The notes beneath the pieces were generated by a model that was not told the origin of the DNA, made no database searches, and saw only the letters and a program-made list of their open reading frames with translations. Position numbers and translations under genes: made by a program. From a virus (taxonomy: Duplodnaviria; Caudoviricetes), in IMG/VR virus record IMGVR_UViG_3300021410_000065, positions 1 through 59,479 of that record: a DNA stretch of 59,479 nt; one strand, 5' to 3'. Shown piece by piece: positions 2,833 through 57,351 of this stretch. Every line of letters begins with the position of its first letter. The stretch's first letter is position 1.

Positions 2833-3199
2833 CGCCGAACAGCTCTGGGCGTACGCGCAGACGATTCCCACGAGCGACGAGGAATTGATGCGCAACAAAA
2901 TTGGGCGTAGCTATTACGCTCTTTATCATCACGCGATAAATTTTCATAACGCTCTCCCCGAGGCTGAAAAAGGTGGCCTGCGCGCGCATACAGGAGGCGT
3001 TCATCAGCAGTTGATTGATCGGCTCTGTAACCCTAGCGTCCGTGATGTGTCGGTGCAAAGCCGCTCACGCAGTATCGGCACTTTTCTAAGCCTAGCAAGA
3101 GCACTGCGCGACCGCGCTGATTATCACCATGATCAGACTGTGACTGCCACGGATGTCGTCAACTGCACACGGTTCGTCTCGAAAGGCCTGACGTTTTAA
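2822..3199 (+). CDS. HEPN-domain protein (125 aa)
   Basis: IGRSYYALYH ... GGVHQQLIDRL ... LRDRADY pattern; ATG 2822 overlaps the end of the upstream gene. Confidence 0.75.
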   Translation: MPSSAEQLWAYAQTIPTSDEELMRNKIGRSYYALYHHAINFHNALPEAEKGGLRAHTGGVHQQLIDRLCNPSVRDVSVQSRSRSIGTFLSLARALRDRADYHHDQTVTATDVVNCTRFVSKGLTF

Positions 3200-4995: not shown

Positions 4996-7900
4996 CTATT
5001 GCGCTCGGCGCATGCGTTCATCCACAGACATCGCAAGCTGATTGCGCGCCTGTACGAGAGTGTCGAGCCGCAGGCGCTTCTCGTCCGCCGGCATCGTTGC
5101 GCTGGTCTCGATCCGCTTGATCTGCTGTCCAATCTCCTGCATGCGCTTATTGGCCGACTGGTAGAGGCCCCGCAGCTTGAGCTTGTCGTCGCCGGCGAGC
5201 TCTCGCGCGCGCTCGATGTCGCCCTCCTTGCGCGCCTGGGTGAACGCGGCATACACCTGGTCGATCTCGCGCTGCTGATCGTAGAAACGCTGGGTGTACT
5301 TGCTGCTGGTGGTATCGGCACCCTTTAGGAAATCGCCAACGACAAACCAGTTCTCGATCTTGGCCATATCGCGCGATGGATTTGCGGGCATATCGAGGGC
5401 TGGACGTGCTGCCCAGTCGGCGGCGCTGAGTGCCTGGGTGCCGAGCCAGCCGAAATACCCGCGTACCAAGTGTTCGATTCGCTGCGGCGAATAGCCAAGC
5501 GCCTTGCCCAGCGCCACTGCGCCGGCACTGGTGCGCGACGTGTAGCGATCGCCTTCCGGTAGCCGCTCCTGCGACGGCGTGTCGATGTTGCGATCGCGGA
5601 AGCTGTCGTAATTGAACGACGCCTCAAGGTATGGCTTAAGCATCTGGGGCATGGGGCTCATTTGCAGCTGATCGCCCAAGACGCTTGCCACGGTCTTGCC
5701 GAAGTCCTTCAGACGGTAATCGTCTCCGGCGAACGCCAGCTCAGTGCCGCGCTCCACGATCGTGCCCAGGGCGCCCACCTCGAACGGCTTCGGCACGTAG
5801 ACGAACTTGTCGCCTATACGCGTAACCCAATAGGTGTTGCGCACCCAGTCAGGAAGCTTTTTGTACTCGTCATCGTCCTTCATGCCCAGGTACAGAAGCG
5901 CCGATGCCATGGCGACGGCCCCCGTGACGGCCACGAACCGCGCGGGGTTTTCCTTGGCGCCGCGGCCCAGCTTGTACATACCCTGCAAGCGCGCGTTCAT
6001 AAAGGGGACCACCTGCGACAACAGACGTACCGCCGCAAACTTGCCGCCAGCCGTGAAGTCCATCAAATCGCGGGCGAGGTAGCTCGCTTCCAAGTGGGTC
6101 TTTCCACTCTTTCGGGCCTGGTTATAGATGGCGGCACGATTGACCGTTTCTGCGCGATCGCCAACCTCCTGATACCAGTCGAACGCTTTGCGCAGATGAC
6201 GGCCGAGGGCTGCCGGCGAGCCGATCACCTGCCCCCGCTCAACGCCCAGGTCCTCCACCAGCCGCTTCACGTTGCGAGCTTGGCCATCTTGGAACGAGCC
6301 GAACCGCACTGCCCCACCGCCGGCCAGCAACCGGCGGAAGGTATCGGAATCCTTGCCTGTAGATTTCCAGCCGTCGGCCATGTTGCGCAGCGGATTCGCG
6401 GAGATGTCCGTATTGATCGCCACCGCGGAGATCGAGTCGCGCATCAGGTTGCGCAGACGGAAGGTTGGGCTGATCGTCACGCCAACCGTGAGCGCGTGCT
6501 TGAACTTACGCATGCCCTTCATGATCGGATCATTCGACCCAACGTAGTGCAACGACGTGAGCGCATCCAGCACGAGCGGATCATGCACCAAGTAGTGCCG
6601 CTCCTGCCCCTTCACCATCACCCGAACGCTGCCCTTTTCGGCGCCCGCCAGACGATCCGCAACGCCCATCGTGCTGGCTGCCTGCAACGCCTCCTGGGCG
6701 GCAAGGTTCTTCATGCTGCCGGAAAGCAGATGCGACCAATTCGCCACGGTGTTCGCCGTCAGGTCGCCCAATTTCTCGCTACCACCCTTCAGCTTACGGA
6801 ATGCCCTCTGACCCACCAGTCCCCCGATCTGGCCGGGGCCCATCGTGCCGGTCTGGTCTTCCTCCATGACGCGATAGAACGGCACGTAGAACTCGCTCTC
6901 CCAGAGGTGCCGAGTGGCACCGTCGATCAAGCCTGCTTGCTCAGCGACATCCATCACCGAGGTCTGCAAATCGTTGAACTCGCGCAGGGCTGTGCGGTAT
7001 ACGTCCGCGCGATTACGGCCGTCGGGCATCTTGCCGCTGGCCAATTGTTTCAGGGACGCGATCTCAGCCGAGGAGAAAAGATTCTCGCGTCCCTCGCCGG
7101 CAAGTTTTTCGGCGCGATTGCCCGCGATCCACGCCATGAAATGATCGTGCTCGCCCTTCAGGTCGGCCAACACATCTGCCAGGCCTTTGGACCCGTCGAC
7201 ACCGTCGAGCGCGCCATCAGTAAGCTTGACCTTTCCACTGCGCACCAGGAACTCGGCAGCGCCGTCTGTACCCTTTGACAAGCGCGCCTGCATGTACGCC
7301 TGTTCGCTCAAGCCCTTGATCGGCGCGAACTGATCGAACACACCCTGCACCAGCTTGGTCTGCCAATTCTGCGTGTGCTTCTTCAGCCTATCGCGGATCG
7401 GCTCGCGGTCGGCGAAGGCCCCAATCTTCTTGAGCGCGCTATCGCGTACCGCTTGGCCTGCAGCGTGCAGTTGTTGCCCGGAGAGCGTGGTCGCTGCCGC
7501 GCGCGACTCCATCGGACCGCCAGAATCAAAAAGCCCCGCATTTGGCGGGGCTTTGTCGTTTCCGGGTCTATTCGAGTTGCTTACTTCGCTCGTAGCTCGC
7601 GGAGTCGGCTTAGGATCACTGGCTCCGCCGCCTGCATGTGCGAGAGCAGCGATTCGACTTCGGACGGCGTCAGGCGAGTCATGCTTGACGAGATAGCGTC
7701 CTTCGGATTCTGTGAGCGCGTCAAAGCCTCGGCCGCTGGCCGCGCGGAAGTCTGATTCGACATTTCCATAGCGTTCTCGCAGTGCTTTCAAGGTTTCGGG
7801 GGACAAGCGCAAGGTAGCACTGTACTGCTTCCCGGTCAACGCGAAAGAGCCAATAACGCGCCCCCCATTCTGCGTGATGTGGGACGCAAGCGACGCCAGG

Positions 7901-10900
7901 GTGCCGCCTTGCGTTAACGTATCGTCCACAAGGAAGTACGTCTCACCACGCCGTACTTCGCCATCGAATTCTGGTTGCTGGAAGATTCGATCCAAGCCTC
8001 CCAACGCAGTGCGCTTTGCGCGTACTGATTGATAGATGGCTCGCGCTACTGGAAGGCCCAGCGAATCCCCAAGTTGCAGAGCGGACGCCAGCGGAATCGT
8101 ATTGAAGCCAGTCGCTTCCTCAGCCAGCACCGGCACGATGGTCGGCCGCTCATTGCCGATAGCGGAACGAACCTTTTCGATCACATCCTCTGTCATCAGG
8201 GAGGACACGAGCTCGGCCGCAGCGGCAGCATCCCCAGCTTTTGCTGCGGCATGCGTGGGGTGCTTCCCTGCGCTGCCCAAGTTGTGGCCGATCACCGTCG
8301 GTGGCAGGTCGACGGGTTCAGGGCCGCGCCGAGAATCTGCGGCCAGGGCTGTCTTTCGGCTGCTCGCGGTAAGAGACGCGGCCGCCTCCAGCATGCCCGC
8401 CTGCGCACGATCGGCGCCGGCGCGACGCAGAAACCGTCCAGCATCTACAACCATCTGCTGCAGGTCGGCATTCGTCAGTTTGAGATCGAAACCCATCGCT
8501 CGCAGCGCCGCGCGCAATTTGGCGTACACCCGCACCAGAAAATGCGGCCGCTGTCCGGTTTCCGCCATGCGGGCGAGCACCTCGCGGGCGCGGTTTGCCG
8601 GGGTGTAGTCCGGATAAGCCAGAAAGACGGCCTCCATCGTCGCGTAAAGCGGGTGGCCGGGCTTCACGTCGCGCGGGATCTTCGCGCCCTCAGGTGCCCG
8701 AGCCAAGCGACGGACATCGGCAAGTATCGCAGGGAACTGTTCGCCCAGGAATGCTTCGACTCCAAAGTGGCCGATAACCTCATGTGCCAGCACCTGTTGC
8801 AAGCGCGCTTCGCTGGACAAGTTGTCGGCCACCAAGTAGATCGCCCCTCCTTCGGTTCGAGGGTAATACACGCCCTCTGCCAATGGGGACGGCCGCGCCG
8901 CCTCGCCGATTTCACCCACGGTCTTGACGACCGAAACCTTCAACCGCGATGCCCCCGGGAGCTGCGACATGAATTTTCGCGCGGTGGCACGCGCCGTATC
9001 CACCGACACGCGACTGGCCTGATCGTGGGCGCGAGACTCAAAGGACGTGCCATGGGTGCGAAATTCTCCGGTTTCCCCGAGCGATTTCCCATCTCGCGTG
9101 ATGGCATCCGTAGGCGAGACGTCGGCTGCCTTCAGGGCTCGGGCCACATTCGCGGCGGCGTCGATCGAAGCGGGGCTGGTATCCCGCACGGAGATGAATG
9201 CACCGACGGCGTTCGACTTCTCGAGCCCGCCAAGCACTGTATCCAGACCGCCGGAGGTGCGCAGCGAGGCCATCTTTTCCAATGAAAGCGGCACAAAGGC
9301 TGACGGGCGCAAATCAGCGTTCACGAACAGCAGCCCTTCCTCTCCGTTCGAAAGCTCGCGCACAGCGACCTTTGCACGCTCTGGCGAGTTGACCGGCTCG
9401 CCCATCTTGCCCGACCGCTTAAAGACCCGCTGAGAGACCGGGATTCGTGTGACTCGCGACCGTGCCGGTATGACGTGATTCGCCTTTTCCGTTTGGGTCG
9501 CTGGGTCGTAGAAAGAAAAGGTTGGATTGCCGATGGCAAGCATGCCGCGCAACTTCACATGCGAACCGCGCGTCAGATCCGCGTATGCCTTAGTGACCTC
9601 TCGGTCCGCCCTGGAGAAGGACGCGTTGCCGCTTGGATGATTGTGAGCCAGCCAGACGTTCGACGCATTCTTGATCCGAGACACGTGTCCCGCGATAAGG
9701 CCGATCGGCGCGGTTGCGCTGGAACGATCCCCAATGCTGAATCGAATGACGCTCATCGGCCGCCCATCGGCGTCAGTGACGAGGGCGACCATCTGTTCCT
9801 GCGGCGACTTACGAATTTGTGCGAGCGCGTGCGCCGCGTCCTCGGCCGAGCTGATTCGGCCATTGGCTGCCGTCAGGTGCCCCGTCTCTCGCGCCTCGAC
9901 GTATGCTGCAAAGCGGCCGTGCTCTACTTCTTCGTGGTAGACCGCACGCGCGGGGCTGCCGATGGCGGGGAGATTTGGTACGTCGCGTGATCGTCGGGCA
10001 TCACCCCCGGGACGTTGGGTCCCAGAGCTTCCTCGGGCAGCTGGTACTGCTTGCTGCTGCGACGAGCCGCGACGGTCGGGGTCGGCGCCGAACATGTCGG
10101 CGGTGTATTGGTCTCGGGGCTGTTCGACATCTAGGTTTTTCCCTTCGGCGTCTTGGCCCGCGCCGCCTTGAATGCCCGGACGAACGCCATCGTGCCCGAG
10201 ACCATATCGCGCTGCTTCTCGCTTAACTGCGGCCTCGAAGTCGCCGTCGTCTCCTGCTCGGATTGCGGCACGTTCGAGGATTGCTTCAATTCCGGTTTCA
10301 TCTGTAATTCCTTTCTCGACGAGATAGCGGGCAGCGTCGAATCGCTGGCCGACTTTCTCCAATGAGGCACCCGCTCCCTGCGCTGCCAGAGCGTCAAACA
10401 CAGCATCGGCGAGATCCGCAGCGAAAGCCGTGTCACCACGCGCAGCATCTTCGGCCTCGCGCTCGGCATAGGCGCGCTGAGCCGCCTCATCCATCTGCGC
10501 CAATGTGTAGACCGGCTCGCCCTCCAACGCATCGCGCACTCGGTCAAGCGCCGTTTGGCCCAAGTCTACCGAGTCAGCATCCATCGGCAGGTAGCCCGCT
10601 TCTTGCATCGCGGCGACAAGCGCATCTTCCTGCATACCGTTGCGTTTGAAAAGCCCCGGTGCTCGGCGATTCGCCAAATGCGCACGATCCCCATAAATGT
10701 CGGCAGCCAACTTCGGCGAAATGCCGCCGCTTTGCTTCAGCAGACGGACGAACGACTTGCGGGCCGTTTGCCCGAAGTCGACGGACGTTTCCGCAGCAGC
10801 TGAACCGCGTGCAGGCATCGTGCGGGGCCTGGCGACGAAGCCGCCACCTTGCTGGATCACGTCAGCATCGCCATGCGCAGCAGCGGCACGAGTTGCTGCG

Positions 10901-13773
10901 CTGCGCGTAAGGAACGGCTTCCCGCCCTTCGCCAGGATGTCAGAGGCAGGCTTCTCGACCTGCAGCGTTCCCAGACCGGGATCAGGATCGACCGATGTCC
11001 GATCAACTCGCGCGGCCGGCGCCGTAAAATCCCCCGTCTTGGTCCAATCCTTGAACTGGGCCATTGACATCTCAGTCATCGCGCCCAGGCCCTTCCAGTC
11101 GTTGCTGTAACTCGATTGGTAGGCCTCGCGGGCCGCTTCCTCATTGGCGTAGCCCATCATGACCTTGTGCTCGTCAAAAGCGCCCGAGGTCGGGTCCACC
11201 TGGTCGATCACAAACACCGGTCCGGCGTAGTCGGAGGCCGTGCCCGGACGAACATATGCGTCAACATGATCGCCGTCGTTGCCAGTCGTACCACGGATGT
11301 ATCCGTAATGGCCGGCCATGCGGTTCGACCATTCCTGCCCGTCAGGCGACCGCCCACGGCGCTCCGAACCCTCCGGATTCTCCACGGTGATGTCCAGACC
11401 GGCCACTTTGATATGGCCCTTTCGATAGTTACCCGCCTCTTTCTGCGCCTCGCTCGGAGGCGCAAGGTCATTCGAGTCAGATTCGGCAGACTCATGCGCG
11501 GCGGCATCGAGCGATGCCGCCGGATGAGCAAATCCAGCGCGCATAACATCATCGGTCAATCCAAGCGACTCGCGCTCAGACGCCTGCGTGCGTTCAGCTT
11601 CCGCGGATGCGAAACGTTGGTCTGCAGTCTGTGCTGTGCCTTGTGCGTCGACAGTAACGGTGGGCGCCGGCAGCGCGGGCCGCGCTGAGCGTCCTTCCAG
11701 TGCCCCGTTGACGCCTTCCGTCAATGCCTCTGCCCCATAGGGTTGCATGCCATTCTCATGGCGGATGATGGCGGCGGTCAGACGCTGCAGCGTGTCAGGA
11801 TCGCGCAGGTTCAGCTGGGCAGTGGCCGAGACCCCCATCTCGCCAGCGACAGCGCGGGCATACGACGCAGTGTCGTTCTCGGACGACGGGGCCCAGCGAT
11901 TGAGTATCGCGGTTACCGTATCGAGGCCGTGCTTATCCTGGTACGTGAGTAGGTTGCGCGCAAGCGCTCGAATGCCTGCCTCCGGGCTGGAGAAGATAGC
12001 AAAGCGGCCATCGGCGCCGTCCACCTCGCCCTGAAACCCGATACCCTTCTCGATGTTGCCAGGGTTATTGTTTCGGATCCCGCGCGGCGCATTCCGAGGC
12101 ATGCCGGATCCTTGCCGCATCACGAACCCATCCCCGCCCGCACGCACATTCTCCGGAGCTGGTAATGCCGCGCGTTCCCGCGGTCCTTCGAGTGCCTCCA
12201 GTCGCTCAGGCGCTGGCAGCGCCAGAGTCTGCTCTTCGCCCAGGGGTTGCTCGCGCAGATCATTCAGGTCGACAAACCGGCTCTGACCATTGACGCGCAC
12301 CCGAGCTCGTCGGCCGTTTTCCCAAGCGCCGCCGGATTCGTAGCCGATGAACTCGGCAGGCTGGCCGTGCCAGAAGACCTGCTGCCCGCGCGCGAATCCA
12401 AGATCGGGGCTCGGGGATGGCTCGCTTGCTTCGGCCGTCTCGCTTTCTGCTGCCTCATCCGCGCGAGCCGCTGCCGCATCGGCGATCTCAGGAGGCATCA
12501 CCGACTCCGGCGCAGGGCGCACGATGAAACCATTGCCCGCGCGCATGACTTGAGCGCCGTCGCCCAAACCCTCTGCCGCGCGCCGCGCCCCTTCAACGGT
12601 GGCAAATGGCTTGCCATTCCGGAAGGTGACGTCCGTATCTGCAACGCGGCCAGCTACCGGGATCGAGCGCACTCGCGCTCCGTCAATCGCACCGTGTGCA
12701 ACCCCGGGGCCCGTGCCTGCCATCGCCCCCATGACTGCGTTACCAAACGACCCTTCCAGCACATCCATATCCATGCCGCCGGCGGAGTTCACAGCTGCGC
12801 GGGTGCTCACGCCCTCGGCAACCTCCTGCGCACCTTCTTCTGCGCCCGACAAAGCGGCGCGTCCTGCAGCTTGGCTTATCACTCCGCGGTTGCCCAAGAC
12901 GCGCCCCGCTGGTGACAAGATCACCCCTGTGGCCCCGCCCGTCACTGCCCCGATCGCTAGGCCAGCGGCGCTGGCCAAGTCCTCAGCTTGGCGCAGCACC
13001 TTCGCACGAGCCTGCGATGGGCTCATTCCATCTCGTAAAGCCTCCCTGAAAGGCTTTGACTCGCGCTCGAGTTCAGCGTCATCCATGCCGCCGATAATTT
13101 CCCGCGCCTGTTCGATTGCCGAGCCGCCACTTTGCGCCGATCCCGCAGCCGCGCTCGCTCCAATCTGCCCGGCCAAACCAAGCGGGCCCGCTGCGATGCG
13201 AGAGAGCAAGACAGGCCCCATCGAGCCCAGCGCTTCGGCGGCCTGCAAAGCAAGACCAGCGGTAGACGGATCCGAGCCGAATGTCCAGCTTGACGGGTCA
13301 GCGAGCGACCCATCAGGCTTGGACGTCTCAGCGGCGCGCTTCGCCGCGGATGATCGGGACTCCAACAGTCCAGCGCCCCATTCTTGCACCGTATCTGCTG
13401 CGGGATCGAGAAGATTACCTGGCATCGCAACGCCAGCGTCGAAAGCTTGATTTACAGCGGTGGCGCCAACCTCTCCGATCGCTTGCGCGACCTTGCCAGC
13501 ACCGCGAATAGCACTGCCTGTACCTCGCACAGCGCCACCAGCCACGCTCAGTGGAACGTCGATGAACTGGATGCCCTCCGGTTCGACCTCCGCAGATGAC
13601 TGCGCACGGGACGGCAAGAACGGCTCCGTCTCCGCAACGAATTGCAGCGACGCTGGCTCGGCTTGCCTTGGGCCATTGGCCCGGACATTCGCGGTGCGAT
13701 CCGCTACGCCGCCGCGAAACGCCGCACCATCTTGATCGACTGGCGGCACGTCCAAAAACTGAATTTCAGGCAT
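4996..13773 (-). CDS. Giant polyvalent virion/ejection protein (~2925 aa): lysozyme-like, InPase, JAB/RadC, zincin peptidase, PRTase and LPD38 domains
   Basis: RGIRNNNPGNI (~12080); GNYRKGH...YGYIRGTTGNDGDHVD...FDEHKVM (~11450-11050); LAHNHPSG..S..D (~9640); LAHEVIGH (~8780); FLVDDTLTQGGTL (~7920); EYKKLPDW...YVPKPFE (~5870-5780). Likely start MPEIQF at 13773 (AGGAAG RBS); the ORF is open to 13848. Confidence 0.9.
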   Translation of the reverse strand: MPEIQFLDVPPVDQDGAAFRGGVADRTANVRANGPRQAEPASLQFVAETEPFLPSRAQSSAEVEPEGIQFIDVPLSVAGGAVRGTGSAIRGAGKVAQAIGEVGATAVNQAFDAGVAMPGNLLDPAADTVQEWGAGLLESRSSAAKRAAETSKPDGSLADPSSWTFGSDPSTAGLALQAAEALGSMGPVLLSRIAAGPLGLAGQIGASAAAGSAQSGGSAIEQAREIIGGMDDAELERESKPFREALRDGMSPSQARAKVLRQAEDLASAAGLAIGAVTGGATGVILSPAGRVLGNRGVISQAAGRAALSGAEEGAQEVAEGVSTRAAVNSAGGMDMDVLEGSFGNAVMGAMAGTGPGVAHGAIDGARVRSIPVAGRVADTDVTFRNGKPFATVEGARRAAEGLGDGAQVMRAGNGFIVRPAPESVMPPEIADAAAARADEAAESETAEASEPSPSPDLGFARGQQVFWHGQPAEFIGYESGGAWENGRRARVRVNGQSRFVDLNDLREQPLGEEQTLALPAPERLEALEGPRERAALPAPENVRAGGDGFVMRQGSGMPRNAPRGIRNNNPGNIEKGIGFQGEVDGADGRFAIFSSPEAGIRALARNLLTYQDKHGLDTVTAILNRWAPSSENDTASYARAVAGEMGVSATAQLNLRDPDTLQRLTAAIIRHENGMQPYGAEALTEGVNGALEGRSARPALPAPTVTVDAQGTAQTADQRFASAEAERTQASERESLGLTDDVMRAGFAHPAASLDAAAHESAESDSNDLAPPSEAQKEAGNYRKGHIKVAGLDITVENPEGSERRGRSPDGQEWSNRMAGHYGYIRGTTGNDGDHVDAYVRPGTASDYAGPVFVIDQVDPTSGAFDEHKVMMGYANEEAAREAYQSSYSNDWKGLGAMTEMSMAQFKDWTKTGDFTAPAARVDRTSVDPDPGLGTLQVEKPASDILAKGGKPFLTRSAATRAAAAHGDADVIQQGGGFVARPRTMPARGSAAAETSVDFGQTARKSFVRLLKQSGGISPKLAADIYGDRAHLANRRAPGLFKRNGMQEDALVAAMQEAGYLPMDADSVDLGQTALDRVRDALEGEPVYTLAQMDEAAQRAYAEREAEDAARGDTAFAADLADAVFDALAAQGAGASLEKVGQRFDAARYLVEKGITDETGIEAILERAAIRAGDDGDFEAAVKREAARYGLGHDGVRPGIQGGAGQDAEGKNLDVEQPRDQYTADMFGADPDRRGSSQQQAVPAARGSSGTQRPGGDARRSRDVPNLPAIGSPARAVYHEEVEHGRFAAYVEARETGHLTAANGRISSAEDAAHALAQIRKSPQEQMVALVTDADGRPMSVIRFSIGDRSSATAPIGLIAGHVSRIKNASNVWLAHNHPSGNASFSRADREVTKAYADLTRGSHVKLRGMLAIGNPTFSFYDPATQTEKANHVIPARSRVTRIPVSQRVFKRSGKMGEPVNSPERAKVAVRELSNGEEGLLFVNADLRPSAFVPLSLEKMASLRTSGGLDTVLGGLEKSNAVGAFISVRDTSPASIDAAANVARALKAADVSPTDAITRDGKSLGETGEFRTHGTSFESRAHDQASRVSVDTARATARKFMSQLPGASRLKVSVVKTVGEIGEAARPSPLAEGVYYPRTEGGAIYLVADNLSSEARLQQVLAHEVIGHFGVEAFLGEQFPAILADVRRLARAPEGAKIPRDVKPGHPLYATMEAVFLAYPDYTPANRAREVLARMAETGQRPHFLVRVYAKLRAALRAMGFDLKLTNADLQQMVVDAGRFLRRAGADRAQAGMLEAAASLTASSRKTALAADSRRGPEPVDLPPTVIGHNLGSAGKHPTHAAAKAGDAAAAAELVSSLMTEDVIEKVRSAIGNERPTIVPVLAEEATGFNTIPLASALQLGDSLGLPVARAIYQSVRAKRTALGGLDRIFQQPEFDGEVRRGETYFLVDDTLTQGGTLASLASHITQNGGRVIGSFALTGKQYSATLRLSPETLKALRERYGNVESDFRAASGRGFDALTESEGRYLVKHDSPDAVRSRIAALAHAGGGASDPKPTPRATSEVSNSNRPGNDKAPPNAGLFDSGGPMESRAAATTLSGQQLHAAGQAVRDSALKKIGAFADREPIRDRLKKHTQNWQTKLVQGVFDQFAPIKGLSEQAYMQARLSKGTDGAAEFLVRSGKVKLTDGALDGVDGSKGLADVLADLKGEHDHFMAWIAGNRAEKLAGEGRENLFSSAEIASLKQLASGKMPDGRNRADVYRTALREFNDLQTSVMDVAEQAGLIDGATRHLWESEFYVPFYRVMEEDQTGTMGPGQIGGLVGQRAFRKLKGGSEKLGDLTANTVANWSHLLSGSMKNLAAQEALQAASTMGVADRLAGAEKGSVRVMVKGQERHYLVHDPLVLDALTSLHYVGSNDPIMKGMRKFKHALTVGVTISPTFRLRNLMRDSISAVAINTDISANPLRNMADGWKSTGKDSDTFRRLLAGGGAVRFGSFQDGQARNVKRLVEDLGVERGQVIGSPAALGRHLRKAFDWYQEVGDRAETVNRAAIYNQARKSGKTHLEASYLARDLMDFTAGGKFAAVRLLSQVVPFMNARLQGMYKLGRGAKENPARFVAVTGAVAMASALLYLGMKDDDEYKKLPDWVRNTYWVTRIGDKFVYVPKPFEVGALGTIVERGTELAFAGDDYRLKDFGKTVASVLGDQLQMSPMPQMLKPYLEASFNYDSFRDRNIDTPSQERLPEGDRYTSRTSAGAVALGKALGYSPQRIEHLVRGYFGWLGTQALSAADWAARPALDMPANPSRDMAKIENWFVVGDFLKGADTTSSKYTQRFYDQQREIDQVYAAFTQARKEGDIERARELAGDDKLKLRGLYQSANKRMQEIGQQIKRIETSATMPADEKRLRLDTLVQARNQLAMSVDERMRRAQ
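7528..7554 (-). terminator. Intrinsic terminator inside the giant gene
   Basis: AAAGCCCCGC-CAAAT-GCGGGGCTTTTT on the minus strand, starting about 27 nt after the nested ORF stop. Confidence 0.75.
7581..7769 (-). CDS. Nested +1-frame small protein (62 aa) inside the giant gene
   Basis: Has its own promoter and terminator; helical, protein-like C-terminus RLTPSEVESLLSHMQAAEPVILSRLRELRAK. Confidence 0.65.
   Translation of the reverse strand: MEMSNQTSARPAAEALTRSQNPKDAISSSMTRLTPSEVESLLSHMQAAEPVILSRLRELRAK
7811..7839 (-). promoter_or_regulatory. Internal sigma70 promoter for the nested ORF
   Basis: TTGACC-N17-TACCTT with TG extended -10. Confidence 0.65.
10131..10301 (-). CDS. Second nested +1-frame ORF (56 aa) inside the giant gene
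   Basis: AAAGGA-N7-ATG; MKPELKQ...LSEKQRDMVSGTMAFVRAFKAARAK. Confidence 0.5.
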   Translation of the reverse strand: MKPELKQSSNVPQSEQETTATSRPQLSEKQRDMVSGTMAFVRAFKAARAKTPKGKT

Positions 13774-13784
13774 TCGTTTTCTTC

Positions 13785-15533
13785 CTATTGTGCGCTGCGG
13801 TTGAACGCTGCGCGCGACATGTCCGACCCGCCCACGGAGGTCGTCCACTCATCTTCAGCGCCCTTGGCGCCTGCTTTAGCTATTGCCAACTTGTCTTCAG
13901 CTTCTTGCAGGCGGGTCCTATGAGCGTCTCGCTCTTCAGCCGGCCGCTTAAGCCCGGGCGGATTGGATCGCAGCCGATGCACTTCCTGTTCGAGCGTCCG
14001 CACCTGCGCCCGCGCAGCGTCCAAGCGCGTCCCCGCTGGGCTGTCAGGAGATTCACTGGACGGTGCGATCGCAGGTGTGCCGCGGCGCGGAGGCGCTGGT
14101 GTCGGTGCTGCCGGGCTGGCGGCTGGCGCTTGCTGGGCGCCAGTGCCTCGCGCTCGGTAGTTCGGATCGAGTTGCTGCTTGACACGCTCCAGGTCTGCCG
14201 GCGGCACAACTGATTGAGGAACGATCACGTCGTGCCCTTCGTACCGAGTGACAATTGCATGCCGCCCGTCGCTCATGCGAACCCCGCGCAGCTCGGCTTT
14301 GCCGTCACGCACAGCTGCGGAAAGGGTAGCCAAGTTCGCGGGCGTAAGCGCGCGTGATCCCGGCATGCCACGATTGAGCGCGCCAATGTTTTCGCCGATC
14401 GCGATCTGCCGGCCAATCTTCTCTCGCTGGTCATCGCCGATGTCTGTCATGCTTTCGACGCCGTTAAGCTTGAAGACGTAGGAGGTGAAGTCCTTGTTGC
14501 TCGCCGCAGGCTTCGAATCGCCCGCCTCTGCGCCGTAAGCGATAGCCCGCGTCTGGCCGTCTGCCCCCGGCGCATAAAGAATGTCGTCTTTGCCCAGCAC
14601 GCGCGGCTTGGCGGCTTCTGCCTGGCGTTCCAGCTCGGCCTTCTGCTGTTGCCTCTTCAGGTCGGTTGCTAAGTCCATGTGCGCCTTAGCTTGCTGCACC
14701 ATCATCGAGCGCGCTGTGGCTGGATCGCCAATCCGACGGATGTAATCATCCATCTGCGCTTGCGTGAACGGAGTCGTGAACTTGGCCTTGCTCGATGGGT
14801 CGTAGCCGGTGATCTCATAGATCGGCTTACCGCCGCCGGTTTCCTCGCGAGCTCGAATACCTTCGACTTGAATGCCGGTTTCGCTGAACCGGTTGAGAAA
14901 CGGAACGAACGCGTTGGGATCGCTGCTCATCTGGTACCGGTTCATTGCGGCGCTGAACGCGGTCTCTCGATGCTGGCCAATTACCTTCTCGCGACGTACC
15001 AACAGATCGAGCGCCTGATCAGGCGCACCCAATTCCAGGGCCTTCCGGTAGCCGCGAGTCAAGGTGTCCGCCATGTCGGCGTAGTCGTCGTTGCCGCCTC
15101 GTGACAAATCACCGGTCGTCAGATTTTTTTTTTGAACCGGCATCGGCTGAAGTCCACTGCTGGATCCGAAAGTTGCTCCAGCACCCCCGGCCGTTGCAGT
15201 TGGCATCGACTGGCGCACGGCGGCTTGCTGGTTGTCGTGCGCAACGGCCATGTCCAGTCCCAGAGAGCTTGTCAGGCCAGCCTGCGACTCCACGTTGAAA
15301 GCGGGCGCGACAGCGATTGGGGATAAGCCAAGCGGCGCTTCGCCGCGCGCTGCCTGTGGCGCTCCCGTATGGGATGTCACTTTCATCGCATCCGCTATTG
15401 CCTTCGTCTTGGCTTCTGCAGCAGCAGCCTTCTCCCGTGCAGCCTGCCTATCAGTCGACTGCTCAAAAATCTGCGACATCACCATACCGTTACGCAGGCC
15501 GTCGGCGAGGCCACTAGCAAAACTACCACTCAT
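13785..15533 (-). CDS. Internal virion/ejection protein
   Basis: Gly/Ala-rich N-terminus GSFASGLADGLRNG; lies just before the giant gene. Confidence 0.7.
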   Translation of the reverse strand: MSGSFASGLADGLRNGMVMSQIFEQSTDRQAAREKAAAAEAKTKAIADAMKVTSHTGAPQAARGEAPLGLSPIAVAPAFNVESQAGLTSSLGLDMAVAHDNQQAAVRQSMPTATAGGAGATFGSSSGLQPMPVQKKNLTTGDLSRGGNDDYADMADTLTRGYRKALELGAPDQALDLLVRREKVIGQHRETAFSAAMNRYQMSSDPNAFVPFLNRFSETGIQVEGIRAREETGGGKPIYEITGYDPSSKAKFTTPFTQAQMDDYIRRIGDPATARSMMVQQAKAHMDLATDLKRQQQKAELERQAEAAKPRVLGKDDILYAPGADGQTRAIAYGAEAGDSKPAASNKDFTSYVFKLNGVESMTDIGDDQREKIGRQIAIGENIGALNRGMPGSRALTPANLATLSAAVRDGKAELRGVRMSDGRHAIVTRYEGHDVIVPQSVVPPADLERVKQQLDPNYRARGTGAQQAPAASPAAPTPAPPRRGTPAIAPSSESPDSPAGTRLDAARAQVRTLEQEVHRLRSNPPGLKRPAEERDAHRTRLQEAEDKLAIAKAGAKGAEDEWTTSVGGSDMSRAAFNRSAQ

Positions 15534-38940: not shown

Positions 38941-39713
38941 TTCCTCCCTAACGCACGCTGCACGGCGTCGCGGTTGCTTGCTTCCAGGGCTTCCTGGCGA
39001 TTAAGTTGAGTTGCCGCCGCCTGTATCGGTGGACGGCCGCTGGGCGGGAACAAACCCTGGTAGCCGCCAGCTATGCAGTGCTCGACCACGGTGGTCGGAT
39101 CCCAACCGTCGGCGCGATATGCGGTCAACTTGCCGATCTGCGAACGGGCGGTCTCTTCGGTGATGGGCTTCTTGATCTCGCCGCGGTGCTTGACCCACCG
39201 AGCCCAGAGTGCGGAAGGCAGCCAGTCTGGCAATGCGATCGATTCGGCGTCGAACCCTCGCGAGCGCTTGCGCTCCGCCTTGATGGTTATTGATGGTTCT
39301 ATTGATGGTTCATTGACGGTTATATGCGGGTGCAACCCGTTGCACCCTTTAGCGTCGCCAATTGCACCCTTTGTGTTGTTAGTTGCACCCTTTGCGTCGT
39401 GGATTGCACCCTTTTCGGGGGGTGCAATTTCTGCACCCTTTATCCAGTCCGGTGAAATTCGGTATTCACGGCGCTGATTACGGCCGCCATTGCCCGAGTT
39501 CACCAGGATGATCCACCCAGCCTCTTCCATCCGACGCAGTTGATACTGCACGGATCGTTCGGACTGGCGCGTCTTATCGGCAAGCGACTTGATCGAGGGA
39601 TAGATCCCGGATCCGTCATCGCTCGAATGGTCGGCAAGCGCGAGCGCGAGCAGCATCTCGCCGCCGCCGTTCGGGTATCGCTTGAAAACCATGGTCATTA
39701 CTTCGACGCTCAT
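38937..39713 (-). CDS. Replication initiator (N-terminal wHTH, internal iteron-like repeats)
   Basis: LLALAD...YPSIKSLADKT..SERSVQ; repeated (T)TGCACCC motif at about 39330-39440. Confidence 0.85.
   Translation of the reverse strand: MSVEVMTMVFKRYPNGGGEMLLALALADHSSDDGSGIYPSIKSLADKTRQSERSVQYQLRRMEEAGWIILVNSGNGGRNQRREYRISPDWIKGAEIAPPEKGAIHDAKGATNNTKGAIGDAKGCNGLHPHITVNEPSIEPSITIKAERKRSRGFDAESIALPDWLPSALWARWVKHRGEIKKPITEETARSQIGKLTAYRADGWDPTTVVEHCIAGGYQGLFPPSGRPPIQAAATQLNRQEALEASNRDAVQRALGRK
39330..39440. repeat. Putative replication origin iterons
   Basis: TGCACCC(T/C)T recurs about five times at roughly 21-nt spacing within the initiator gene. Confidence 0.65.
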
Positions 39714-57132: not shown

Positions 57133-57351
57133 ATGTCCAACTACCTGTCCCGAACGGAGCTTCAGGAGCTGACCGGCTACCAGATTCGATCCGCCGTCAT
57201 TCGGTGGTTGGATCGCGGATCCTGGCCATACGCCACTGGCGGCCCAGATGGATGGCCGCGCGTGCTCCGAAGCTATCATGACGCCCGCCTTGCGGGCGTT
57301 TCCATGTCGAAGTCCAAAAAGTCCGACCAAACCCCAAACTGGAGCCGTTAG
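57133..57351 (+). CDS. xis: Excisionase (DUF4224-like)
   Basis: YLSRTELQELTGY...IRWL...G.PRVLR, directly upstream of int. Confidence 0.78.
   Translation: MSNYLSRTELQELTGYQIRSAVIRWLDRGSWPYATGGPDGWPRVLRSYHDARLAGVSMSKSKKSDQTPNWSR

Follow-up and report, generated by a model that had tools for sequence, protein, structure and literature searches.

We present a small +1-frame gene that straddles the junction of the PRTase domain and the ensuing linker in a phage gene for a polyvalent virion protein, found in a stretch of viral DNA of 59,479 nucleotides (hereafter the window). Taken as a whole, we regard this as the best explanation of the observations and as likely to be correct. The product of the nested gene is probably a small protein that acts as a partner of the overlapped enzyme domain. 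A preliminary description of this DNA had read here a separate short transcription unit inside the giant gene. All the elements it listed, namely TTGACC, TG, TACCTT, the ATG at 7769, the TAA and the hairpin, lie on the minus strand where it had placed them, and such a unit is supported by nucleotide-level conservation of promoter, start, frame and hairpin, together with RNA contigs from three studies. That the nested unit is more than a chance arrangement follows from its relatives, in which the motif is present in 72/72 loci, the constrained frame switches, rare codons are retained and the stem is fixed, and not from the window alone.

The host gene encodes a polyvalent protein, the term for a very large polypeptide, carried by a phage or by a conjugative element, that unites many unrelated effector domains (Iyer et al. 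2017, PMC5512222). Its 2950-aa provirus ORF combines InPase (residues 800-937), RadC (1332-1447) and LPD38 (2659-2827) domains with a weak Pfam match to Pribosyltran (1897-2007; 15.8 bits against a cut-off of 26.3). The latter falls within a PRTase domain that shows 38% identity to a plasmid 'phosphoribosyltransferase', with the common motif VDDTLTQGGT; we recovered 72 relatives of this domain in viral contigs, and the motif LVDDTLTQGGT is invariant. PRTase domains are known both as solo forms and within phage and plasmid polyvalent proteins, and the 2017 survey of these proteins calls their role 'somewhat enigmatic' (PMC5512222). Among phages, a blastn search with 7300-8100 returned a single short match, to Achromobacter phage CF418P1, whose homologous CDS of 2684 aa immediately precedes the lysis genes. 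As the preliminary description had held, the giant frame is uninterrupted across the promoter, the nested ORF and the hairpin (Table 1). The idea that the giant gene is in truth two genes split at the hairpin was ruled out, as the frame is continuous in 25/26 loci; the sole exception, L016, has a 1-nt deletion in a hairpin arm and further frame breaks.

Against that survey's account of polyvalent proteins, the nested unit appears to add something: neither the +1-frame ORF nor its promoter or hairpin figures in the term-matched passages of PMC5512222, and the words 'frameshift' and 'overlapping' occur there 0 times each. Literature (main texts) on the RLTPSEIESL motif, on overlapping or alternative-frame prophage immunity genes and on polyvalent PRTases since 2018 likewise yielded no account of the nested unit. 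Standard annotation had been expected to miss it, and indeed none of the annotated records inspected lists the nested gene; a gene in another frame inside a 9-kb ORF is invisible to gene callers.

Table 1. Coordinates of the giant gene and of the features nested in it (positions in the window)
Feature	Position	Strand	Basis
Giant ORF, 2950 aa, phage polyvalent protein hosting the nested unit	4996..13848	-	ORF list and Pfam
PRTase domain (giant-protein residues 1850-2072), predicted to bind the peptide	7633..8301	-	similarity to plasmid PRTase
-35 box TTGACC, on Leu-Thr codons of the PRTase motif LTGK	7834..7839	-	sequence and codon use
Extended -10: TG, c, TACCTT, 17 nt past the -35 box	7811..7819	-	sequence and codon use
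Nested +1-frame ORF, 62 codons and TAA	7581..7769	-	ATG at 7769, stop TAA at 7583-7581
Conserved peptide core (MTRLTPSEVESLL... to the C-terminus)	7584..7682	-	+1-frame motif in 72 loci, dN/dS
Short, higher-depth RNA-library contigs	7555..7793	.	three soil metatranscriptome studies
GC hairpin, 10-bp stem, 5-nt loop, U-run; resembles an intrinsic terminator	7525..7554	-	hairpin scan, fold, relatives

The nested ORF overlaps the end of the PRTase domain and the linker behind it. A profile built from 10 of its peptides was searched on the 72 PRTase loci of the viral contigs, and its best match lay in the +1 frame, at the same place, in 70/72 of them (58 at E<1e-3), while none of its giant-frame matches in these loci was better than E 0.9. 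The remaining two also carry the motif, L094 at 1.4e-5 once placed in register and L088 at 0.089 but readable by eye. Thus, homologous PRTase domains do keep the +1 ORF, a point that the preliminary description had proposed to check, with RLTPSEIESL in the +1 frame at the same place in all 72 viral loci. The tail from the motif to the stop measures 29-37 codons in 70/76 loci, every locus has an uninterrupted overlap zone of 30-55 codons, and the lengths of insertions and deletions between the ATG and the hairpin are divisible by three.

The frame under selection changes within the overlap. Third-position diversity in the giant frame is 0.22-0.50 before the inner ATG and 0.08 beyond it; the first 30 nt past that ATG are conserved at all three codon positions, and in a set of 64 unique sequences variability comes to peak at the third codon position of the +1 frame instead. 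The +1 frame has a dN/dS of 0.49 over motif codons 4-18, where the giant frame stands at 1.35 and the third frame at 1.19; over the 20 codons upstream of the motif the relation is reversed, the giant frame giving 0.46 and the +1 frame 1.33. Pairwise values within the close clade alone were indecisive (0.83 for the giant frame, 0.65 for the +1 frame), and the wider set resolved them. Sequence comparison thus shows that purifying selection acts on the +1 frame itself between about 7682 and 7584. The 62-aa ORF of the preliminary description is accordingly present and conserved, with the qualification that its own-frame constraint lies mainly in the last 33 codons, the first 29 being shaped mostly by the overlapping PRTase frame. 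Moreover, solo PRTases end in a giant-frame ...VRDRIL.AR..., which implies that the giant frame is also genuine over part of the overlap. In absolute terms the +1-frame dN/dS of 0.49 is only moderate.

Beyond the giant genes, a profile search of 1.84 billion representative proteins recovered 50 at E<=1e-3 (best 3.5e-15), many of them with two copies of the motif. Free-standing motif ORFs occur beside genes for MmeI-type enzymes; in one such locus (L105) a 98-aa ORF with two motif copies starts 4 nt before the stop of the MmeI-type gene, and in two further loci (L121 and L143) an HNH protein ends in the motif as its C-terminal tail. Among 47 metagenome loci, at least 15 contain a motif ORF with no open stretch of more than 100 codons in another frame of the same strand, free-standing status being judged on same-strand frames only. 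The PRTase and the nested ORF are found together in 72/72 viral loci, in 21 metagenome loci and in one conjugative-plasmid PRTase gene read in all frames (L029), which shows the same +1 nesting and a textbook Shine-Dalgarno sequence, AAGGAGGA-N8-ATG. Conversely, in L008, L009 and L125 the nested ORF persists without a PRTase, behind a different module. Given the free-standing relatives in loci with no detected PRTase, this enzyme need not be the only partner of the peptides.

Searches of Pfam, PHROGs, NCBIfam and PADLOC with the peptides gave nothing meaningful, the ESM Atlas returned only unnamed clusters with scores under 0.9, a cluster look-up of 10 homologues produced no informative names, and tblastn of a free-standing homologue against phages found no match. 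The peptide is a member of a widespread unnamed family with the motif RLTPSEIESLR, which also exists as free-standing genes; this adds an unnamed family of small proteins that recurs beside restriction-type and HNH genes.

Upstream of the nested ORF, the candidate promoter has a -35 box that agrees with the consensus at 5/6 positions and a -10 box that agrees at 3/6, the latter preceded by the TG extension: the 17-nt spacer ends in TGc, with TG at 7819-7818 and TACCTT at 7816-7811. An automated promoter scan of the window did not call it, because TACCTT fits only 3/6 positions. The Leu codon of the -35 box is TTG in 52/53, and in 64/67 unique sequences, compared with only 3-18 of 62-66 sequences at six other conserved Leu columns on the same tree, and the TG comes from a Ser codon for which 42/65 sequences use AGT, against a background use of 7.8%. 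Without exception, the relatives inspected have A as the second and T as the sixth base of the -10 hexamer, a pattern that the protein sequence alone can explain. A +1-frame TGA lies inside TTGAC, so that conservation of the latter could serve another purpose. Nevertheless, codon usage suggests that a promoter of the form TTGAC...TG-N-10-like is held within the PRTase coding sequence by synonymous codons that are otherwise rare.

Downstream of the stop, the hairpin reads AAAGCCCCGC-CAAAT-GCGGGGCTTT at 7554-7530 and is followed by TTGATTC. With 7 GC pairs in its 10-bp stem, its 5-nt loop and the ensuing UUUUUGAUUC, it has the stem-loop and U-run of an intrinsic terminator; its fold energy is -18.2 kcal/mol (3 nt before and 7 nt after included). 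An automated scan called it, and a search of both strands of the whole 59 kb for perfect stems turned up no longer one with a T tail. In 21 unique relatives the stem codons are fixed at 4/4 fourfold positions, as against 1/79 invariant fourfold control columns, while the loop varies, and L018 shows a compensatory A:T to C:G change in an extension of the stem. The suggestion that APPxAGL is a conserved protein motif with the hairpin as its shadow was ruled out by the fixed synonymous positions. Conservation of the terminator across homologues, which the preliminary description had proposed to check, therefore holds for the stem and fails for the U-run, which reads UUUCU, UUCG (the L010 type) or, in L018, GUUCUG with the G right after the invariant stem. 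We conclude from these alignments that this clade of Alcaligenaceae phages has an invariant-stem GC hairpin after the nested ORF, with the giant frame reading through it. With a promoter in the synonymous sites of an enzyme and a terminator in a linker that is still translated, regulatory and coding information would be layered in the same phage DNA.

The hairpin and the ORF also occur apart. The position of the hairpin is the exact onset of similarity between different cargo modules; it occurs without the nested ORF in L010-L015, L017, L020, L022 and phage CF418P1, and in L023 it stands at another junction. Most other PRTase lineages have the nested ORF and lack a strong hairpin: downstream of the +1 stop, 26/56 distinct sequences have no perfect hairpin of at least 6 bp, and stems of at least 9 bp are found outside the clade in three lineages only. 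One of the PRTase lineages, L077, has an unrelated 10-bp hairpin with a T-rich tail after the +1 stop, as expected if terminator function is what matters. The proposal that promoter, ORF and effector are shuffled as one cassette thus survives in part: the PRTase and the ORF do travel together in viral, metagenome and plasmid loci, yet the hairpin occurs without the ORF, the ORF without a PRTase, and most PRTase lineages are without a strong hairpin.

RNA libraries offer an independent view of the unit. In three soil metatranscriptome studies, whole contigs of 222, 233 and 228 nt span 7565-7786, 7555-7787 and 7566-7793, with a depth over 7555-7793 of 3.9-28 as against 2-5 in the flanks; these are unstranded contigs with no true ends, in libraries that may contain DNA, and contig depth is a poor measure. 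In a fourth study a relative's 261-nt contig with a depth of 92.6 passes through the hairpin, and the next contig, 7256-7528, has a depth of 4.8. The three-study contigs thus stop at 7555-7566, and those of the relative break at about 7528-7531. On the other side their first positions, 7786-7793, fall 11-18 nt short of the predicted start at 7804, although a contig end is no evidence of where transcription begins. Parts of 6000-9500 that are uncovered in the RNA libraries are uninformative. Together, the contigs support, short of proof, a discrete RNA of about 240-280 nt that runs from just past the promoter to the hairpin.

Such an RNA could act without being translated. The best-placed alternative, which we nonetheless judge unlikely, is that the conserved nucleotides serve a small regulatory RNA, a site for processing or stability of the late mRNA, or a recombination joint between modules, with no +1 protein being made. 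It is strongest for the hairpin: instead of terminating transcription, the stem could be a palindrome used in recombination or bound by a protein. The coincidence with the onset of cargo-module similarity, the occurrence without the ORF and at another junction, and the unconserved U-run are all in its favor, as are the conservation of all three codon positions just past the inner ATG and the fact that RNA contigs do not show translation. However, the third-position periodicity and dN/dS favor a +1-frame product, and the free-standing ORFs and in-frame C-terminal tails imply that the motif is a real protein motif. Further, a structured small RNA is not favored because the predicted whole transcript folds no more stably than its shuffles (z = -1.16; 28/200 shuffles fold at least as well), and Rfam offers no family (best 22.6 bits against a threshold of 70, from the hairpin alone). 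The unrelated T-tailed hairpin of L077 also speaks for termination.

If the +1 frame is indeed translated, the ribosomes could enter it either at the inner ATG or from the giant frame. A point against the former is that upstream of ATG 7769 there is no Shine-Dalgarno sequence, with at best a weak GAG. By the latter account, which we consider improbable, a share of the ribosomes on the giant gene would shift by +1 (or -2) past the PRTase and yield a truncated protein ending in the RLTPSEIESL helix before the hairpin. The overlap zone being open in every locus would permit this. In a small number of lineages the open +1 stretch contains no ATG at all: L077 and L079 have TTG only, and L089, L090 and L100 only a GTG 36 codons upstream. 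In addition, PRTase sequence and motif share one frame in P0007 (215 aa) and P0030 (66 aa), which may, however, be sequencing errors or fragments. Against a shift, synonymous choice preserves the start codon: in relatives with Tyr or His followed by Gly at the start position, the ATG is formed by TAT-G or CAT-G in 31/31 unique contexts and never lost to TAC or CAC, while at other conserved columns Tyr is TAT in 29/67 and 11/64 and His is CAT in 36/67. The plasmid version has its textbook Shine-Dalgarno sequence ahead of its own ATG, three loci keep the ORF behind a module that is no PRTase, a conserved -35 box stands upstream with the short RNA contigs starting after it, and no conserved slippery site was noticed in an unsystematic look. 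Finally, that the open +1 frame, the hexamers and the palindrome arose by chance in a GC-rich CDS, their conservation being a shadow of the giant protein, is very hard to credit: although off-frames of GC-rich genes are often open, and the giant-frame helix ...DAVRDRI..., real in solo PRTases, is bound to limit what the +1 frame can encode, codon use is mixed at the other conserved Leu, Tyr and His columns of the tree, the stem is fixed at 4/4 columns against 1/79, the giant-frame dN/dS exceeds 1 inside the motif, and the motif recurs in unrelated free-standing genes.

Returning to a nested gene with a protein product, we examined the partnership with the PRTase domain by co-folding, a check that the preliminary description had put forward and which came out in its favor. 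The peptide and the PRTase domain are predicted to associate with a score of 0.77, against 0.32 for the best control; in a benchmark, 0.77 was reached by 58/80 solved complexes and 2/110 mismatched pairs, counts that hold only roughly because our own alignments were used in the co-fold. The runs share at least 72% of contacts, with a partner pLDDT of at least 63. The score expresses model confidence and is silent on inhibition. The modeling thus lends support, falling short of proof, to docking of the peptide on conserved surfaces of the PRTase domain, and a dedicated predicted binding partner offers an experimental handle on these enigmatic domains.

We propose that synthesis of the short RNA may not depend on late transcription, so that it could occur in the lysogen, for instance, and would end at the hairpin. 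The peptide would regulate its cognate PRTase effector, in all likelihood by inhibiting it or conferring immunity to it. Producing cells or lysogens might thereby be spared the activity of the effector, or the PRTase effectors of incoming relatives might be weakened, and the hairpin could also insulate the C-terminal module and the lysis genes from internal transcription. One further proposal, that the terminator renders the full-length giant mRNA dependent on a Q antiterminator, has nothing to stand on: the models PF06530, PF03589 and PF06323, the last of which matched no control genome either, have no match in the window.

A bolder version, which we advance tentatively and think rather doubtful, is that the RLTPSEIESLR peptides constitute a portable family of small anti-PRTase (anti-effector) proteins, overprinted as an antidote on the coding sequence of the effector in those phages and plasmids that inject or express one. 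If this were true, overprinting would mean that recombination can never part effector and antidote; the internal promoter of the prophage would be active while the late region is silent, and the lysogen would be protected both from its own effector and from superinfecting relatives armed with PRTases. The free-standing and fused copies beside restriction-type genes would then be the same module, recruited by hosts for defense.

In its architecture the nested unit recalls lambda Rz/Rz1, where the whole of the small +1-frame gene Rz1 is contained in the larger Rz gene and both proteins are produced; the Rz1 lipoprotein cooperates with Rz in lysis, and one late mRNA serves for the translation of both. 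The nested unit, too, is a small +1-frame gene inside a larger phage gene. Unlike Rz1, it seems to have a promoter and, in this clade, a terminator of its own, and the predicted partner of its peptide is an enzyme domain of a virion effector protein. There is also a likeness to phage morons, promoter-gene-terminator units that are inserted between late-operon genes and expressed from the prophage: here, likewise, a putative promoter, a small ORF and a hairpin terminator lie together in the late region, with the RNA contigs limited to the unit. In contrast to morons, it sits not between genes but inside one continuous frame of 2950 aa that stays open, and it is therefore no moron.

Effector-immunity and toxin-antitoxin pairs offer a third comparison, in that a small protein is always encoded with an enzyme effector (72/72 loci) and is predicted by modeling to bind it. 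The partner gene here overlaps the coding sequence of the effector rather than following it; by analogy, the PRTase might be toxic and the peptide might neutralize it, and the peptide has no sequence match among known antitoxins. Should the analogy hold, bacteria would offer here a clear example of nucleotides shared between an effector and its regulator. ShosT is the PRTase toxin of the ShosTA defense system, and it was seen as a weak PADLOC match only, at E 0.0026.

The polyvalent protein encoded by the giant ORF of the window, a 59,479-bp provirus record, matches InPase, RadC and LPD38 in Pfam, along with a sub-threshold match to Pribosyltran. Its homologue in Achromobacter phage CF418P1 (OQ817832, 6422-14476), a 2684-aa polyvalent protein, is the last large late gene ahead of the lysis genes; it is annotated 'putative portal', a label that is probably wrong because Pfam finds no portal family in the window's homologue. 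A preliminary description had proposed that a promoter, a +1-frame gene and a terminator are nested inside the giant gene. The positions it gave for the -35 and -10 boxes, the ORF and the hairpin are all exact on the minus strand, and frame reading confirmed its claim that the giant frame stays open throughout. We regard it as probable that the nested gene is real, and that it would be transcribed from its own promoter inside the PRTase coding sequence, with its RNA ending in the Alcaligenaceae clade at an intragenic hairpin terminator and its product binding the PRTase domain.

Elements of the nested unit and the enclosing gene
Feature	Position	Strand	Description	Basis
-35 box	7839-7834	minus	TTGACC	read in sequence
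Spacer after -35 box		minus	17 nt, ends TGc	read in sequence
-10 box	7816-7811	minus	TACCTT	read in sequence
Nested ORF	ATG at 7769, TAA at 7583-7581	minus	62 codons	ORF reading
Hairpin	7554-7530	minus	10-bp stem (7 GC pairs), 5-nt loop, then TTGATTC	sequence and terminator scan
Giant ORF	4996-13848	minus	2950 aa, open across all nested elements	

We compared 72 viral-contig PRTase loci, which share 36-73% identity with the query. In 70 of them the best match of a ten-peptide profile is +1 and equally far from the domain (E<1e-3 for 58 of these), the best giant-frame match being no better than E 0.9. The remaining two also carry the motif RLTPSEIESL (L094, 1.4e-5, in register; L088, 0.089, readable by eye), so that the +1 ORF is kept in 72/72 loci. 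In 70/76 loci the stop follows the motif after 29-37 codons. Within the close clade, diversity at giant-frame third positions falls from 0.22-0.50 ahead of the inner ATG (7682) to 0.08 directly behind it, and among 64 unique sequences the most variable codon position switches at the motif from the giant-frame third to the +1-frame third. The +1 frame has a dN/dS of 0.49 across motif codons 4-18, where the giant and third frames have 1.35 and 1.19, respectively; for the 20 codons ahead of the motif, the values are 0.46 (giant frame) and 1.33 (+1 frame). Indels from the ATG to the hairpin are multiples of three, and therefore read-through into the rest of the giant protein is preserved as well. 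The C-terminus of solo PRTases has the giant-frame reading (...VRDRIL.AR...); hence, both frames are real across a few codons, in keeping with a +1 dN/dS that is no more than moderate. Leu codons at PRTase reference positions 194 and 202 (window ~7735 and ~7711), both within the N-terminal half of the nested ORF, are nearly fixed as CTC (64/67 and 52/61), so that the opening 29 codons of this ORF may not be wholly without constraint of their own.

The ATG at 7769, 29 codons ahead of the motif, is found in most loci and is composed of a giant-frame Tyr or His codon and the G of a Gly codon. That codon is TAT or CAT in 31/31 unique Tyr/His-Gly contexts and never TAC or CAC, as against mixed usage in control Tyr/His columns of the same alignment (TAT 29/67 and 11/64, CAT 36/67). 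In other lineages an ATG is found at -20 or -31, or a TTG at -29; a TTG or a distant GTG is all that five sequences offer, and the phage versions of the ORF lack a clear Shine-Dalgarno sequence. The -35 box falls on Leu-Thr of the PRTase motif LTGK, with the Leu codon being TTG in 64/67 unique sequences, against 3-18 of 62-66 in six control Leu columns, and in 52/53 in a separate count (background 12.4%). The Ser codon giving the extended -10 TG is AGT in 42/65 (background 7.8%), and A2 and T6 of the -10 box are kept in the relatives displayed, which the protein sequence could explain. TTGAC also contains a +1-frame TGA, a possible alternative reason for its conservation. An automated scan of the window for promoters and terminators left the promoter uncalled and called the hairpin.

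Five soil metatranscriptome runs from five studies each contain 5-11% of the sampled words of 6000-9500, and four of them were aligned. Three studies each yielded a contig that aligns over its full length with 1-2 mismatches: 222 nt at 7565-7786, 233 nt at 7555-7787 and 228 nt at 7566-7793, the predicted unit being 7804 to 7528. Their depths are 9.9, 3.9 and 28, those of the same runs' other contigs, in the flanks, are ~2-5, and depth is a poor ranking measure here. A relative is present in the fourth run (17 mismatches over 152 nt, with a 65-nt skip in the variable tail), in which a 261-nt contig of depth 92.6 extends through the hairpin to ~7531 and the next contig, on 7256-7528, has a depth of 4.8. 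As the covered part is the high-coordinate side of the hairpin, only a minus-strand RNA could have the hairpin as its 3' terminator. These contigs, which are strandless, have ends that are not true RNA ends and come from libraries that may contain DNA, hint at a discrete nested-unit RNA in several studies. The predicted RNA is not unusually structured relative to shuffles (z = -1.16) and matched no Rfam family. A 1694-nt contig from run X1 (depth 27, ~9% mismatches) covers 9181-9500, a part of the giant gene slightly beyond the RadC match, and is probably another organism's conserved domain.

The hairpin with short flanks folds at -18.2 kcal/mol and, of all T-tailed perfect stems on the window's two strands, has the longest. 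We compared it across 16 loci from viral contigs and 10 from bacterial genomes (Achromobacter, Castellaniella, an Alcaligenaceae MAG, and the distant Chitiniphilus and Xanthomonadales). The stem GCCCCGC/GCGGGGC is identical across all Alcaligenaceae-clade loci, with the 5-nt loop taking nine forms. In one codon alignment of 21 unique sequences, the stem codons GCC, CCG, GCG and GGG are each invariant and the loop Pro codon has three forms; a fixed codon occurs in 1/79 control columns with an invariant fourfold-degenerate residue. In one relative (L018), the stem is extended by C:G versus A:T elsewhere, a two-sided change altering two giant-protein residues. Given the fixed stem codons, the varied loop and this two-sided change, the stem is selected as nucleic acid, with the peptide APPxAG being a by-product. 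The giant frame is continuous over the site in every one of the 26 loci except L016, which has a 1-nt deletion in the 5' arm (3015-3035) and other frame breaks. L016, the only locus with a broken giant frame, also shows ATG to ATC in the MESR motif after the hairpin, and is either a decaying prophage or a sequencing error.

Several observations do not fit a simple terminator well. The U-run varies among relatives, and the hairpin occurs without any nested ORF in L010-type loci and in CF418P1. In a Chitiniphilus prophage (L023:751-769), the hairpin GCCCCGC-CCAAT-GCGGGGC, read as APPNAG...SGP, lies at a different giant-gene module junction, suggesting a portable junction element; it is located there upstream of a repeated domain. 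Moreover, a strong hairpin is absent behind the ORF from most other PRTase lineages. These points bear on a purely RNA- or DNA-level element, an explanation chiefly for the hairpin, which we deem unlikely. In L077 and L079, an unrelated 10-bp hairpin (AAACGCCTCC-N6-GGAGGCGTTT, then CTGTTTT) lies 16 nt past the +1 stop, the giant frame running >500 codons beyond it; it resembles a separately evolved answer to the same need. The proposed Q-dependence of the full-length giant mRNA found no support, with no Q-family match. The other perfect T-tailed hairpins of the window are only those at 39328-39438 (+; a cluster of three overlapping stems), 28052-28031 (-) and 57281-57299 (+), and likely mark operon ends or a regulatory region. 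A motif [LMFV]-E-S-R recurs in giant-protein linkers (GPMESR at ~7510-7499, LLESRS near residue 163, SFESRA near 1590) and in L010-L015 (~2990-3080) forms a near-direct repeat either side of the hairpin (ATGGAGTCGCGC ... ATGGAATCGCGC), the two copies beginning 63 nt from each other; the motif may be a site of protease processing or an insertion/duplication trace.

Searched against 1.84 billion representatives, the ten-peptide profile recovered 50 proteins at E<=1e-3 (best 3.5e-15), all small and many with two copies of RLTPSEIESLRQD.KEA.AY..K.F. They constitute an undescribed small-protein family, with no covering model in Pfam, NCBIfam, PHROG or PADLOC. Two natural records, P0007 (215 aa, on a contig of 6.6 Mb) and P0030 (66 aa), have PRTase sequence and peptide in one frame; true frameshift variants, fragments and sequencing errors are all conceivable. 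These records are relevant to the possibility that the +1 peptide is a frameshift product, which we consider quite improbable. A metagenome scan for the motif yielded 47 loci: in 21 it is +1 to a PRTase match, in one (L132) +1 to the C-terminal fragment of a disrupted PRTase, in another (L125) nested in a 1690-codon ORF in which a PRTase was looked for and none found, and in 15 any other same-strand frame lacks an open stretch of >100 codons; nine are without clear class. Chance is a scarcely credible explanation of the nested unit as a whole. Among the 15, one or two motif genes adjoin an MmeI-type restriction-modification enzyme gene (L103-L105), a motif gene adjoins a Z1/helicase gene (L130), and the motif forms the in-frame C-terminal tail of ~160-aa HNH proteins (L121, L143); these loci have no PRTase match, and their gene neighborhoods seem to have a defence-island flavour. 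A free-standing member matched 12 plasmids by tblastn, 11 typed as conjugative, inside CDSs annotated as phosphoribosyltransferase or TraN. In the one plasmid whose frames were examined (L029), the match is +1 to the CDS, in a 53-codon ORF with AAGGAGGA-N8-ATG ahead, and the PRTase is 38% identical to that of the window.

The nested unit combines features of three known kinds of arrangement, namely nested +1 genes (lambda Rz/Rz1), morons and effector-immunity pairs, a combination not found in the published literature searched. In the 2017 paper on polyvalent proteins, the passages retrieved by term search contain neither 'frameshift' nor 'overlapping'.

Co-folding of the 223-aa PRTase domain with the 62-aa product, from custom alignments of 34 rows each, gave a score of 0.77, the best control reaching 0.32. 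This mark is attained by 58/80 solved complexes and 2/110 mismatched pairs, counts that are rough given the custom alignments; the runs had at least 72% of contacts in common and a partner pLDDT of at least 63. This check, suggested in the preliminary description, supports binding of the peptide to the PRTase domain in the model. Given the strict linkage, the predicted interface and the need for an effector to stay quiet in the producing or lysogenic cell, we posit that the peptide most likely has an inhibitor or immunity role. The predicted contacts involve peptide residues 25-60, its conserved part, and domain residues 23-33, 57-61, 66-79, 87-97 and 104-113, with several invariant positions among them.
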